NCBI RefSeq assembly: GCF_041886205.1 | Contig: NZ_CP169029.1 | Length of the DNA stretch: 64,000 bases | Strand: one strand, 5' to 3' | Source of the DNA: Escherichia coli | Lineage (GTDB): Bacteria; Pseudomonadota; Gammaproteobacteria; Enterobacterales; Enterobacteriaceae | In this document: in pieces, positions 27,882-34,685 of the stretch | How the letters are laid out: the number at the start of each line of letters is the position of its first letter | Position numbering within the stretch: the first letter of the stretch is position 1 | The notes under the pieces: model-generated | Seen by the model: only the letters and a program-made list of their open reading frames with translations | Databases searched by the model: none | Told to the model about the DNA's origin: nothing | Position numbers and translations under genes: made by a program

Positions 27882-28877
27882 TTAATCAAAATATTGCGTC
27901 TGGATAAATTCACTGAGCTGCCGCAGGCCGGTGCGCGGTGAGAGCGTATTGTTTTTGACCGCTAAAAGCGTCTGGCGGTAATAGCGATCGAAATCTTCAT
28001 TCGCGAACAGGTGATTCAGTACTTCTTCTTCGGTCTGCTTACGCAGCCATTCCACCGATTGTTGTTGCCGCACTTGTTGTAAACGACCACTGGCAGTTAG
28101 CGCGGTTTTGAAGTCGATGATGGCGTGCCAGATCTCATCGATTCCACGTTTTTCCAGTGCGCTACAAGTCAGAACCCGTGGCTGCCATTCGTCGTATTTA
28201 CGTCGCAGAATATGCAGGGCACTCTCGTACATATGCCGGGCAATGGCGACATTGGTATGGTTATCGCCATCGTCTTTGTTGATAACGAGCAGATCAGCCA
28301 CTTCCATCAGCCCTTTTTTAATGCCCTGCAGATCATCGCCGCCACCGGCAATTTGCAACGAGATAAAACAGTCCACCATGCGGGCGACTTCCGTTTCCGA
28401 CTGCCCGACGCCAACCGTTTCGACAATCACTACGTCATAACCCGCCGCTTCGCATAACAGCATTAATTCCCGCGCTCGCTGACTGGCACCGCCCAGATGA
28501 CCGGAGGATGGTACCGGGCGAATAAACGCCGCTTCGGCACGCGCCAGGTCATTCATGCGGGTTTTATCCCCGAGAATGCTACCGCCAGTGACCGGGCTGC
28601 TGGGATCGACCGCAATAACCGCGACCTTTAATCCCTCACGAATCAACAACATGCCAAAGGCTTCAAGAAAGGTACTTTTCCCCGCGCCGGGTGTGCCGGT
28701 AACGCCCAGTCGCAGGGCGTTACCGCAGTACGGCATAATGGCATCAAGCAGTTGCGTACTTAGCGCCTGATGACGCGGGTGACGGCTTTCCACCAGCGTC
28801 ATGGCCTGGGCGAGTGTGGCACGCTCACCCTGACGTAAGCGGCGAATACTTTCTGCCAGCGTGGCTTCATTAATCAT
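27882..28877 (-). CDS. argK: MeaB/ArgK-type G-protein chaperone for methylmalonyl-CoA mutase, 331 aa
   Basis: ORF track 27882..28877; P-loop GTPGAGKST; the start overlaps the scpA stop by 8 bp. Confidence 0.95.
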
Positions 28878-31014
28878 GATGCTGGCTTATCAGATTCAGT
28901 ACGTCGCGCACACTGTCGAGCATAGGTGTACCTGGACCATAAATCGCCGCCACGCCGCGCTCTTGCAGGAAGGCGTAATCCTGCGGTGGAATGACGCCAC
29001 CGGCGACTACGCAGATATCTTCGCGTCCCCATTTTTTCAGCGCTTCGACCAGTTCCGGGATCAGCGTTTTATGACCGGCAGCCAGTGAGGATGCGCCCAC
29101 TACGTGAACGTCGTTTTCTACGGCCAGGCGGGCGATCTCTTCAGGTGTAGAGAACATCGGGCTTAAATCTACGTCGAAACCGAGATCGGAATAGGCGCTG
29201 GCGATCACTTTTGCGCCGCGATCGTGCCCATCCTGGCCCATTTTAGCGATCAGAATGCGCGGGCGACGACCATTGTCGGCAAGGAACTGCTCCGTTTGCG
29301 CAACAATGGCATCGAACTCGGAGGCCGATTTCTCAGATTGATGATAGCTTTGCGCAATCACGCCGGTAACACACTGGCTTGGCACCAGATAACGGTCGAA
29401 AGCGGCTTCCAGCGCATCGGAAATTTCACCCAGGGTGGCGCGAACGCGAGCGGCATTAACAGCGGCAGCCAGCAGGTTTTCGTTATGCTGTGCGGCGTGA
29501 GTCAGGGCGTTCAACGCGGCGGTTACGGCGGCATCATCACGGGTGGCGCGAATGCGTTCCAGCGAAGCAATTTGCTCGTTACGCACCATCACGTTGTCGA
29601 TCTCAAGTACATCGGTTTCGTCTTCGTGATCCAGTTTGTACTTGTTGACACCAACGATGACACGTTTGCCCTGGTCGATAAGCGACTGTTCGCGCGCTGA
29701 GGCCTCTTCGATCATTCGTTTTGGCAGACCTGCTTCGATCGCTTTCGCCATGCCACCGGCTTCGTCGATCTGTTGGATAATGGCTCTGGCTTGTTTGACG
29801 ATTTGATCGGTCAGCGACTCAACGTAATAGGATCCGGCCAGCGGATCGACGGTGCGGCAGAGTTCTGATTCTTCCTGGATGATGATCTGGGTGTTGCGGG
29901 CAATGCGTGCGGAGAAATCGGTAGGCAAACCAAGCGCTTCGTCAAAGGCGTTGGTATGCAGTGACTGAGTACCGCCCAGCGTCGCAGCCAGTGCTTCAAT
30001 GGTGGTGCGGATAACGTTGTTATACGGATCCTGTTCAGTCAGGCTCCAGCCTGAGGTCTGGCAGTGGGTACGCAGCGCCAGTGATTTCGGGTCCTGTGCG
30101 CCAAATCCACTGACCGCTTCGCTCCATAAATAACGTGCCGCACGCAACATGGCGACGTTCATAAACAGATCCATGCCGATGCCGAAGAAGAACGACAGGC
30201 GAGGAGCGAAGTCATCAATTTTCAGCCCGGCGGAGATTGCTGCTTTGATGTACTCAATCCCATCGGCGAGCGTAAATGCTACCTGCTGCACGCAGTTGGC
30301 ACCCGCTTCACCCATGTGGTAACCGCTGATACTGATGGTATTAAATCGCGGCATGTTGCCAGAACACCAGGCGATGATGTCGGCGATAATGCGCATTGAC
30401 GGTTTTGGCGGGTAAATATAGGTGTTGCGGCAAAGATACTCTTTGAGGATATCGTTTTGAATGGTGCCGGTCAGTTTATCAGGTGTAACACCTTGCTCTT
30501 CTGCGGCGACGATATAAAACGCCAGTACTGGTAGCACTGCGCCATTCATGGTCATCGAAACCGACATTTTTTCCAGCGGGATCTGGTCGAACAGGACTTT
30601 CATATCTTCCACGGTGTCGATAGCGACGCCCGCTTTGCCGACGTCGCCCGCCACGCGCGGGTTATCGGAGTCGTAGCCTCGGTGGGTGGCAAGGTCAAAC
30701 GCAACGGAAAGACCTTTTTGCCCGGCGGCCAGGTTACGGCGATAAAAAGCGTTGGACTCTTTTGCTGTTGAAAAACCAGCATACTGACGGATGGTCCACG
30801 GTTGGGCGGTATACATAGTGGCACGCGGGCCACGAACGTAGGGCGGCAAACCAGGAAGGGTACCTGTCACCTCCAGATTATCGAGATCGGCTTCGGTATA
30901 CAGCGGCTTGATGGCGATCCCTTCCGCGGTTTGCTGAACCAGCGAGTCGACAGTTTTCTCCCGACGGCTCAATTCCTTGTTGGCAAGCTGTTGCCACTCC
31001 TGCACGTTAGACAT
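28870..31014 (-). CDS. scpA: Methylmalonyl-CoA mutase (B12-dependent), 714 aa
   Basis: ORF track 28870..31035; ATG at rc 31012-31014 gives [40 protein letters not shown]. Confidence 0.96.
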
Positions 31015-31217
31015 TATTTGCTCCGTAAAACGCAATCAAAATGAGGGTATTTGCGCCTACGGTGAGCTTTTTACGTGGGTTTGTCGCCAGCAAAAAAAAT
31101 GCATTCAGACGTCGTTTTTTGCCGCCTGAGATTTGTCTATTTTGTGATGTGATTCAAGGAATACAAAAAGAAGTGAGGGAAATGCCTGATATGTGCTATC
31201 AGGCATTATTTGATGGA

Positions 31218-32111
31218 TTAATCCTGACGAAGGACTTTGTGACCATAATCGAGTAACGCATCAGTGACTTTACGCATCATGCGGCTTTCAGGAGCAAAGC
31301 GGTGCCAGTAGAGCATCCGTCGTTGAAATAGCCCAGGCGTTAAGTCAATCAGTTCACCGCTGGCCAGCTCTTTCTCGATTTGCAGGTGCGGGATCATACA
31401 GCAGGTGGTGCCCTGGCGAGCAAGTTGTACGAACGCTTCTGAAGAATTAACGATATGGCAGGGTACGCTGCCTGGAGGCAGATCGAAGTTTTGCTGCAAA
31501 AAGGCCTGGTGCATATCGTCAAGATGGTCAAACGCGACCACTGGCGCTTTCAGTAATGCCGAACGCGTTACGCCGTTAGGGAAATATTTTTCGGCAAAGG
31601 GTTTTGAGCTGACGAACAGATAGTCGAGCGCACCGAGCTTATCGACAAGACAACTCGGCAGCGCCTGATGTTGAATACTCACCGCGCCGACCACTTCGCC
31701 GCGGCGCAGACGTTCCTGAGTGCGGGTTTCATCTTCTACCTGCAAGTTGAGGCGGATAGGCGAATCAGCCAACACAGGAGCCAGTGCCGGAAGCAACCAC
31801 GTCGCCAGACTGTCGGCGTTGACCGCCAGTGAAAGCAGCAGCGGAGTCGAACCGGTTTGTTCATCGCCCAGCCACTCTTCTTCCAGCAACTCCACCTGGC
31901 GCAGCAGTGCCAGCAGTTTTTGCCCTTGTTCCGTCGGGCGCGGCGGTACGGTACGCACCAACAGCGGCTGCCCGAACATATTTTCCAGTTGCTTAATGCG
32001 CTGTGAGACGGCTGATTGTGTAATGCACAGCTTTTGTGCCGCGCGCTCAAATCCTCGTTCACGTATCACCGCATCCAGTGCCTGTAATGTTCTGTAGTCC
32101 GGGCGTTTCAT
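31218..32111 (-). CDS. argP: LysR-family regulator ArgP (IciA), 297 aa
   Basis: ORF track 31218..32177; ATG at rc 32109-32111 gives [43 protein letters not shown]. Confidence 0.95.
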
Positions 32112-32252
32112 TGCTGTTGTCTGCTCCTGGTAAATGCTTTTTCCTGCACTATGACACAATTTTGTGTCAGGTTGCATATACCGAAGCCGTCGGCGGGTAA
32201 CATTTGTATTCGTGGTTAAACGCGCAGCTTAAAAGATCAGGGATGTGCGCTA

Positions 32253-32483
32253 ATGCATTTCGCTCAGCGAGTTCGCGCCCTGGTTGTGTTGAATGGCGTG
32301 GCGTTATTGCCTCAATTTGCCTGTAAACAGGGGCTTGCGAACGGTGAACTGGTGCGCCTGTTTGCACCGTGGAGCGGCATACCCAGATTGTTGCATGCCT
32401 TATTTGCGGGGCGAAAGGGGATGCCTGCCATTGCGCGATATTTTATGGATGAGTTAACCACGCGGCTTGCCAACGGGGTCTGA
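32253..32483 (+). pseudogene. yqfE: Fragment of a LysR-family regulator (C-terminal effector-domain remnant), yqfE-like
   Basis: 76-aa ORF (MHFAQRVRALVVLNGVALLPQFACKQGLANGELVRLFAPWSG...) resembles only the C-terminal end of a LysR substrate-binding domain; no HTH domain upstream. Confidence 0.5.
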
Positions 32484-32538
32484 ATCGCTTTTTTTGTATA
32501 TAATGCGTGTGAAATTTCATACCACAGGCGAAACGATC

Positions 32539-33198
32539 ATGACGCAGGATGAATTGAAAAAAGCAGTAGGATGGGCGGCACTTCAGTATGTTCAGCCCGG
32601 CACCATTGTTGGCGTAGGTACAGGTTCCACCGCCGCACACTTTATTGACGCGCTCGGTACAATGAAAGGCCAGATTGAAGGGGCCGTTTCCAGTTCAGAT
32701 GCTTCCACTGAAAAACTGAAAAGCCTCGGCATTCACGTTTTTGATCTCAACGAAGTCGACAGCCTTGGCATCTACGTTGATGGCGCAGATGAAATCAACG
32801 GCCACATGCAAATGATCAAAGGCGGCGGCGCGGCGCTGACCCGTGAAAAAATCATTGCTTCGGTTGCAGAAAAATTTATCTGTATTGCCGACGCCTCCAA
32901 GCAGGTTGATATTCTGGGTAAATTCCCGCTGCCAGTAGAAGTTATCCCGATGGCACGTAGTGCAGTGGCGCGCCAGCTGGTGAAACTGGGCGGTCGTCCG
33001 GAATATCGTCAGGGCGTGGTGACCGATAACGGCAACGTGATCCTCGACGTCCACGGGATGGAAATCCTTGACCCGGTAGCGATGGAAAATGCGATTAATG
33101 CGATTCCGGGCGTGGTGACTGTTGGTCTGTTTGCCAACCGTGGCGCGGATGTCGCGCTGATCGGCACGGCTGATGGCGTTAAAACCATTGTGAAATGA
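32539..33198 (+). CDS. rpiA: Ribose-5-phosphate isomerase A, 219 aa
   Basis: ORF track 32467..33198; ATG at 32539 gives [39 protein letters not shown]. Confidence 0.96.
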
Positions 33199-33452: not shown

Positions 33453-34685
33453 ATGGCAAAGGTATCGCTGGAGAAAGACAAGATTAAGTTTCTGCTGGTA
33501 GAAGGCGTGCACCAAAAGGCGCTGGAAAGCCTTCGTGCAGCTGGTTACACCAACATCGAATTTCACAAAGGCGCGCTGGATGATGAACAATTAAAAGAAT
33601 CCATCCGCGATGCCCACTTCATCGGCCTGCGATCCCGTACCCATCTGACTGAAGACGTGATCAACGCCGCAGAAAAACTGGTCGCTATTGGCTGTTTCTG
33701 TATCGGAACAAACCAGGTTGATCTGGATGCGGCGGCAAAGCGCGGGATCCCGGTATTTAACGCACCGTTCTCAAATACGCGCTCTGTTGCGGAGCTGGTG
33801 ATTGGCGAACTGCTGCTGCTATTGCGCGGCGTGCCGGAAGCCAATGCTAAAGCGCACCGTGGCGTGTGGAACAAACTGGCGGCGGGTTCTTTTGAAGCGC
33901 GCGGCAAAAAGCTGGGTATCATCGGCTACGGTCATATTGGTACGCAATTGGGCATTCTGGCTGAATCGCTGGGAATGTATGTTTACTTTTATGATATTGA
34001 AAACAAACTGCCGCTGGGCAACGCCACTCAGGTACAGCATCTTTCTGACCTGCTGAATATGAGCGATGTGGTGAGTCTGCATGTACCAGAGAATCCGTCC
34101 ACCAAAAATATGATGGGCGCGAAAGAAATTTCACTAATGAAGCCCGGCTCGCTGCTGATTAATGCTTCGCGCGGTACTGTGGTGGATATTCCGGCGCTGT
34201 GTGATGCGCTGGCGATCAAACATCTGGCGGGGGCGGCAATCGACGTATTCCCGACGGAACCGGCGACCAATAGCGATCCATTTACCTCTCCACTGTGTGA
34301 ATTCGACAACGTCCTTCTGACGCCACACATTGGCGGTTCGACTCAGGAAGCGCAGGAGAATATCGGCCTGGAAGTTGCGGGTAAATTGATCAAGTATTCT
34401 GACAATGGCTCAACGCTCTCTGCGGTGAACTTCCCGGAAGTCTCGCTGCCACTGCATGGTGGTCGTCGTCTGATGCACATTCACGAAAACCGTCCGGGCG
34501 TGCTAACTGCGCTGAACAAAATCTTCGCCGAGCAGGGCGTCAACATCGCCGCGCAATATCTACAAACTTCCGCCCAGATGGGTTATGTAGTTATTGATAT
34601 TGAAGCTGACGAAGACGTTGCCGAAAAAGCGCTGCAGGCAATGAAAGCTATTCCGGGTACCATTCGCGCCCGTCTGCTGTACTAA
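33453..34685 (+). CDS. serA: D-3-phosphoglycerate dehydrogenase, 410 aa
   Basis: ORF track 33453..34685; MAKVSLEKDKIKFLLVEGVHQKALESLRAAGYTNIEFHKGALDDEQL... Confidence 0.97.
   Translation: MAKVSLEKDKIKFLLVEGVHQKALESLRAAGYTNIEFHKGALDDEQLKESIRDAHFIGLRSRTHLTEDVINAAEKLVAIGCFCIGTNQVDLDAAAKRGIPVFNAPFSNTRSVAELVIGELLLLLRGVPEANAKAHRGVWNKLAAGSFEARGKKLGIIGYGHIGTQLGILAESLGMYVYFYDIENKLPLGNATQVQHLSDLLNMSDVVSLHVPENPSTKNMMGAKEISLMKPGSLLINASRGTVVDIPALCDALAIKHLAGAAIDVFPTEPATNSDPFTSPLCEFDNVLLTPHIGGSTQEAQENIGLEVAGKLIKYSDNGSTLSAVNFPEVSLPLHGGRRLMHIHENRPGVLTALNKIFAEQGVNIAAQYLQTSAQMGYVVIDIEADEDVAEKALQAMKAIPGTIRARLLY

Follow-up and report, generated by a model that had tools for sequence, protein, structure and literature searches.

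An annotated gene between argP and rpiA

The DNA analysed here, a stretch of 64,000 nucleotides referred to throughout as the window, is part of an Escherichia coli chromosome. Its central genes are arranged in the order scpA (28870-31035, minus strand), argP (31218-32111, minus strand), a short open reading frame (32253-32483, plus strand), rpiA (32539-33198, plus strand) and serA (33453-34685, plus strand). The two immediate flanks, argP on the left and rpiA on the right, are intact according to the RefSeq annotation of matching genomes, and only 141 nucleotides separate the start of argP from the open reading frame. The latter comprises 76 codons beginning with ATG, and it is chimeric, spanning a deletion junction that is described below. 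It is found in the list of mechanically derived open reading frames as well as in RefSeq and UniRef. A 461-nucleotide probe extending across it (32100-32560) has matches in 5,425 of 5,426 complete E. coli genomes, some of them with 100% identity.

The open reading frame is the catalogued, and hence already known, gene yqfE. The 76 amino acids encoded in the window match exactly the UniRef entry 'Uncharacterized protein YqfE' (RepID YQFE_ECOL6). The yqfE genes of strains K-12 and CFT073 agree with it in locus, length and junctions, and the product differs from that of the K-12 allele by two residues (P46L and Y48H). In RefSeq the K-12 protein (WP_000545308.1) is named 'LysR substrate-binding domain-containing protein', and other alleles go by 'type 2 periplasmic-binding domain-containing protein' or 'hypothetical protein'. 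PGAP thus continues to call yqfE a coding sequence under three names that depend on the allele; the label on the allele of the window is 'hypothetical protein', and E. coli O157:H7 carries no annotation at this position. The K-12 GenBank and EcoCyc records presumably list yqfE as a LysR-family pseudogene fragment. A literature search on yqfE in E. coli returned passing mentions only, one in a list of deletions and the other in a computational list of CsrA targets; both name the gene as a neighbor of argP (PMC10652928; PMC8144298).

Two minor observations concern the argP side. The longest mechanically derived open reading frame over argP (31218-32177, minus strand) starts at 32177 and encodes 319 amino acids. 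It runs 22 codons too far into the intergenic region, given that the annotated ArgP protein has 297 amino acids and starts at 32111. The intergenic region itself ('yqfE_argP', corresponding to window positions 32112-32252) was predicted to bind CsrA with a probability of 0.64 in the computational InvenireSRNA screen (PMC8144298). In the 14 alleles compared below, the part of this region next to argP (32112-32164) is devoid of segregating sites; the part that belongs to the scar is highly variable.

A LysR-type fragment and its intact counterpart

The resemblance of the open reading frame to LysR-type transcriptional regulators (LTTRs) is a true homology rather than a chance similarity, and it is limited to residues 14-76. 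In a Pfam search residues 15-72 aligned with positions 151-208 of the 209 positions of the LysR_substrate profile (PF03466; E = 1.4e-5), the score of 25 bits being just under the gathering cut-off of 28 bits. Likewise, residues 12-72 aligned with positions 237-297 of the 303 positions of an NCBIfam LysR equivalog model. The weak Pfam score is superseded by direct orthology with an intact gene: a tblastn search with the 298-amino-acid LysR-type protein of E. coli strain EC19 placed residues 236-298 of that protein at window positions 32292-32480 with 96.8% identity (E = 7e-36). Pfam, NCBIfam and tblastn thus agree in supporting the preliminary description, according to which the open reading frame between argP and rpiA resembles only the C-terminal end of a LysR effector domain. 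The helix-turn-helix domain HTH_1 (PF00126) was not found in a Pfam scan of the 76 amino acids. A complete small-protein family unrelated to LysR, which the same description had named as an alternative, can be set aside in view of the Pfam and NCBIfam searches: neither returned a full-length match of this kind, and both yielded LysR-type matches with one exception, a weak alignment of 22 residues to a RiPP peptide model that scored 14.8 bits relative to a cut-off of 70.

The match of EC19 to the probe across the open reading frame covered the right part only, and the locus is annotated with a full 'LysR family transcriptional regulator'. Where the window has the 76-codon open reading frame, the argP-rpiA interval of EC19 (locus L001) contains four genes, which were assigned with Pfam and NCBIfam. 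Three of them form an operon on the minus strand. They encode a membrane flavoprotein of 441 amino acids with Ferric_reduct, FAD_binding and NAD_binding domains (L001 903-2228), a periplasmic stress protein of the DUF1471/BhsA-like type with 86 amino acids (L001 2290-2550), and an FMN-dependent azoreductase-like protein of 209 amino acids with a Flavodoxin_2 domain (L001 2567-3196). The domain architecture of the first protein, here termed NOX-like, resembles that of bacterial NADPH oxidase. The fourth gene (L001 3297-4193, plus strand) is divergent from this operon, ends 55 nucleotides before rpiA and encodes an intact LTTR of 298 amino acids with HTH_1 at residues 4-63 and LysR_substrate at residues 88-294. 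This regulator (WP_022646093.1 in EC19; WP_000568123.1 in strain A10) and the open reading frame of the window share the stretch that corresponds to regulator residues 236-298 and open reading frame residues 14-76, the stop codon and the 55-nucleotide spacing to rpiA. The intact gene differs in having HTH_1, a full LysR_substrate domain, its own promoter and a divergent redox operon, all of which are missing from the window.

Measured against a functional LTTR, the open reading frame therefore lacks HTH_1, has an incomplete effector domain, encodes 76 instead of approximately 300 amino acids, and has lost the divergent operon by deletion. Its features are instead those of an LTTR gene remnant: it is homologous to an intact gene at the orthologous site, start, promoter and domains are lost, and it shows relaxed constraint or further erosion.

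Adjacency of two LysR-family sequences raises the question of whether the remnant derives from argP. The preliminary description had regarded it as a paralogous regulator, a term that is acceptable loosely, because both belong to the LysR family, but does not hold in the sense of a close paralog of argP. ArgP (IciA) and the intact regulator belong to a common superfamily and have the same domain order, yet they are not recent duplicates. A BLASTP comparison of the two was marginal (28% identity over 36 residues; E = 0.004), and the intact regulator scored 57.7, 55.9 and 53.3 bits with the ArgP/LysG subfamily models, whose cut-offs are 297, 197 and 273.6, respectively. Higher scores over full-length alignments were obtained with the NCBIfam models PRK14997 (168 bits), YafC (149 bits) and AaeR (127 bits), all of them far below the equivalog cut-offs of 380, 470 and 425. 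Given these distances, the intact protein represents an uncharacterized LTTR subfamily. Its nearest solved structures are 3szp/3t1b (E = 1e-34), which we take to be AphB of Vibrio cholerae, and 3hhg, which we take to be CrgA of Neisseria. Compared with all of these proteins, the open reading frame of the window keeps only the last fifth. The lost gene was thus not a duplicate of argP, and it appears to have been a regulator dedicated to the adjacent redox operon.

In the intact locus the native promoter of the regulator gene (TTGACA-N16-ATAATT), its ribosome-binding site and its start codon all lie within the DNA that is deleted from the window. The same holds for a dyad (TCTCAT-N7-ATGAGA) that is a candidate LysR operator. 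By analogy with the usual architecture of LTTR loci, the intact regulator may have controlled the divergent operon from the shared intergenic region of 100 bp.

Deletion junctions and loss of the four-gene module

Alignment of the window with the EC19 locus by blastn produced three collinear pieces. The first ends at window position 32164, equivalent to L001 885 (98.1% identity), the second connects 32230-32290 with L001 2593-2654 (88.7%), and the third extends from 32291 onward, corresponding to L001 4001 onward (97.5%). The right deletion junction, between 32290 and 32291, is sharp in both the blastn comparison and the alignment. At this point 1,346 bp are absent (L001 2655-4000), comprising most of the azoreductase-like gene, the divergent promoter region and codons 1-235 of the regulator gene (the 5' 705 nucleotides). 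What follows the junction is the 3' fragment of the regulator gene, that is codons 236-298 plus the stop codon (32292-32483, plus strand), as identified by tblastn, blastn and Pfam. What precedes it (32205-32290, minus strand; tblastn and blastn) is a scrap of the azoreductase-like gene in antisense orientation, made up of approximately the last 28 codons or 86 nucleotides at the 3' end of that gene. In the tblastn search residues 182-207 of the azoreductase-like protein aligned with window positions 32289-32212 on the minus strand (77% identity, E = 1e-8), and comparisons with loci L008 and L013 extended the homology to 32213.

The left deletion, which accounts for about 1.7 kb including the NOX-like and DUF1471 genes, falls into the zone 32165-32204 and is not placeable to the base. 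Window positions up to 32164 or 32172 correspond to L001 up to 885 or 893, a local alignment reaches 32183 (L001 908), and the segment 32184-32204 has no confidently assigned origin. A tblastn search of the 64-kb window with all four module proteins detected nothing beyond residues 236-298 of the regulator and residues 182-207 of the azoreductase-like protein.

The ATG and codons 1-13 of yqfE consist of the antisense azoreductase-like scrap, and codons 14-76 are derived from the regulator gene. The open reading frame thus exists by accident, the junction having left an ATG in frame. A weak Shine-Dalgarno-like motif, AGGG, at 32239-32242, 10 nucleotides upstream of the ATG, also lies within the azoreductase-like scrap. 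The 32290|32291 junction recurs in every one of the 13 further remnant alleles sampled that retain this position, among them those of K-12, an EPEC E2348/69-derived strain and O157:H7, which suggests a single origin of the deletion.

These junctions bear directly on how the regulator gene was lost. The preliminary description had described a decayed regulator and proposed a search for frameshifted segments upstream of the open reading frame, in the region 32100-32540. A corresponding model would have a paralog of argP decaying in place by frameshifts and stop codons with its upstream parts still recognizable in that region. Its appeal lies in the side-by-side position of two LysR-family sequences, but in the tblastn search with the intact protein, residues 1-235 were without a match throughout the 64-kb window, including all frames of 31900-32700. 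In addition, the 141-nucleotide gap next to argP is short, and the similarity to ArgP is marginal, as detailed above. We consider descent from argP by such a route to be extremely improbable, and decay in place of a LysR gene was ruled out by the absence of upstream frameshifted segments in the tblastn search. Of the earlier wording, a non-functional C-terminal LysR remnant stands, decay in place does not, the 5' part having been lost by deletion, and the open reading frame does mark local gene loss, as had been proposed.

The distribution of the module is informative with respect to the direction of change. It was detected in 233 of 5,426 complete E. coli genomes (about 4%), with a threshold of 80% coverage or more of the 3.1-kb segment and identities of 95-100%. 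In a scan of species-representative genomes, which returned only loci with full-length relatives, the LysR gene was found at the same site, in the same syntenic arrangement as in EC19, in E. whittamii, Escherichia sp. E1V33, Escherichia sp. MOD1-EC7003 and a metagenome-assembled genome (MAG) of Pseudocitrobacter. In Pseudocitrobacter the regulator shows 72% identity to the intact protein, and the module is without an azoreductase-like gene. Partial copies of the NOX-like gene are present in loci L010, L011, L012 and L013; the matches in three Escherichia species cover residues 19-71 plus 327-441, 19-102 plus 268-441, and 279-441, respectively. MOD1-EC7003 has a split LysR match and a cut DUF1471 gene. 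Within E. coli, the NOX-like gene is split in strain JX21CE8 and interrupted by IS1 in strain Ecol_881. This pattern indicates that the module is eroding repeatedly and independently in other Escherichia lineages. Since a complete gene cannot arise from fragments, we regard the full module as the ancestral state of the site.

Taking these data together, we propose that yqfE is the inert scar left at the argP-rpiA site by deletion of the four-gene module that was ancestrally present there, an ordinary case of gene decay, and we assign this reading a probability of approximately 0.88. The ancestral site would have contained the azoreductase-like/DUF1471/NOX-like operon and, divergent from it, the regulator gene encoding 298 amino acids. 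Two deletions, or one complex event, would have removed the module, about 3.1 kb in total, and the survivors would be the 63 final codons of the regulator gene and, from the 3' end of the azoreductase-like gene, about 86 nucleotides. The antisense scrap supplies the in-frame ATG by accident, giving rise to the 76-codon open reading frame. Its product, if made, would be devoid of the winged-helix DNA-binding domain and of about three quarters of the effector domain, and would be unable to regulate. The sequence that remains is presumably drifting.

The importance of this finding is limited. It offers a textbook case of a small E. coli open reading frame annotated as 'hypothetical' or 'domain-containing' that is a deletion scar, and yqfE should not be counted as a candidate regulator or small protein. 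The argP-rpiA site is polymorphic for the presence of a four-gene redox module that includes a bacterial NOX-like flavoprotein, and this module may serve as a lineage marker.

Sequence variation and possible roles of the remnant

Segregating sites were counted in an alignment of 14 remnant alleles over window positions 31912-32757. They amount to 2.5% in the argP coding sequence and to 2.7% in that of rpiA (8.2% at its third codon positions). The corresponding values are 14.8% in the scar upstream of the open reading frame, 12.8% in the N-terminal scrap of the open reading frame, 12.5% in the regulator-derived part and 3.6% in the spacer between the open reading frame and rpiA. The scar is therefore about fivefold more polymorphic than the flanking genes, and it varies at least as much as silent sites do.

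Several alleles have lost the open reading frame altogether or in part. In the O157-like alleles (L005 and L020) the ATG is changed to TTG and codon 5 from CAG to TAG, and in strain E09 (L006) two deletions of 89 bp and 24 bp shift the frame. A stretch of 45 bp that is present in the window (32313-32357, plus strand) is deleted in frame in L004, L005 and L020 according to the alignment. Carriers of this loss were counted by probing for the segment that is deleted: the 60-nucleotide probe (32306-32365) matched 3,806 of 5,426 genomes, and about 1,620 genomes (about 30%) are without the segment due to the 45-bp or a larger loss.

Four features run counter to an inert scar: the regulator-derived residues of the K-12-type allele, a bias of polymorphism toward third codon positions, the in-frame nature of the 45-bp deletion, and the AGGG motif. 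Over the 63 regulator-derived residues the K-12-type allele does not differ from the intact genes, and WP_000545308.1 is encoded without change in K-12, L007, L015, L016 and L019 despite differences at the DNA level, for example at 32309, 32363 and 32417. In the regulator-derived part 16 of 24 variable sites are at third codon positions (p = 0.0009). This bias is carried by ten polymorphisms shared with the six intact alleles compared, nine of these polymorphisms being at third positions; the 14 sites private to the remnant are divided equally between third positions (seven) and first or second positions (seven; p = 0.15). After this split between shared and private polymorphisms, purifying selection on the open reading frame was rejected as the main explanation.

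It is likely that recombination through the conserved rpiA flank moved silent variation, already filtered in the intact genes, from intact into remnant alleles. The azoreductase-like scrap cannot be exchanged by way of this flank, as it has junctions on both sides. Its identity to intact alleles is 74-78%, even though these are 86-97% alike among themselves, whereas the regulator-derived scrap is 97-99% identical to them, and this difference in divergence probably reflects recombination through the rpiA flank.

The same data have to be weighed against the possibility that the chimeric open reading frame is expressed as a 76-amino-acid protein that has an independent function, such as interference with the oligomerization of other LysR-type regulators. 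The start codon preceded by a weak AGGG, the preservation of the open reading frame in 11 of the 14 sampled alleles, the constancy of WP_000545308.1 and the overall third-position bias would be compatible with such a role. Against this model, the frame is abolished in the O157-like and E09 alleles and is 15 codons shorter in a large fraction of genomes, and substitutions private to the remnant are without significant codon-position bias. The fragment, which corresponds to only the last 58 of the 209 effector-domain positions, does not constitute an autonomous fold. The native promoter is gone, and no substitute was detected by the promoter scan. Moreover, the genome-reduced strain DGF-298 is viable with a 10,442-bp deletion that removes yqfE, argP and eight more genes (PMC10652928). 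We regard a functional small protein as highly unlikely and infer that yqfE is not expressed.

A second possibility is that the 3' DNA of the regulator gene has been kept as a cis-acting element for the control of rpiA, either as upstream elements of its promoter or as a 5' regulatory region, and that the deletions stop there for this reason. The stop codon of the regulator gene is only 55 nucleotides upstream of the rpiA ATG and is followed after 16 nucleotides by a perfect TATAAT (32499-32504). With this hexamer so close to the stop codon, any -35 or UP element would fall into the last codons of the open reading frame. Even the most eroded allele (L006) retains the last 60 or so nucleotides of the open reading frame together with the spacer, as do all others seen, and polymorphism of the spacer is low. 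However, the body of the regulator-derived scrap (32292-32440) is as polymorphic as the scrap outside the open reading frame (12.5% versus 14.8%) and is partly deleted in the 30% of genomes mentioned above. In the EPEC-derived strain and in E09 an ERIC-like insert (271 bp and about 130 bp, respectively) at the TATA motif lies between the whole remnant and the -10 box, and the annotation still shows an intact rpiA. A consensus scan for promoters and terminators on both strands of 32050-32600 came up empty, though it was insensitive and also missed the promoters of argP and rpiA. Rfam returned no family in the same region at E <= 1. A cis-acting role of the remnant in rpiA control is unlikely, if somewhat less so than a functional small protein; for the last few tens of nucleotides alone it is conceivable.

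We also considered a broader claim, namely that the new 76-codon open reading frame is translated in most E. coli strains and maintained as a small protein, or else that the regulator-derived DNA serves rpiA control. If true, either would account for the unchanged 63 regulator-derived residues of the K-12-type allele, but we rate the claim as only marginally more plausible than the small-protein model. We favor an inert scar.

Two further observations relate to individual alleles. The residue changes P46L and Y48H of the window allele result from four substitutions within 12 nucleotides (32388-32399), which convert CCGTTGTATGCT to TTGTTGCATGCC and create a GCATGC palindrome. This cluster is common to L017 and to approximately 1,400 genomes that are at least 99% identical to the probe, and it looks like one multi-nucleotide event; a donor copy was not found elsewhere in the window.

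The repeat inserts of the EPEC E2348/69-derived strain (L003 1960-2231) and of E09 (L006, approximately 905-1035) are located at sites equivalent to window position 32500|32501, where GAGTATAATGCG is regenerated. Both contain CGCTCACCCCAGTCACTTACTT and TGTAAGCTCCTGGGGATTCAC, and the L003 copy has internal insertions. We take the two sequences to be the ERIC2 (reverse complement) and ERIC1R primer sites, respectively, and the insert to be an ERIC/IRU element.
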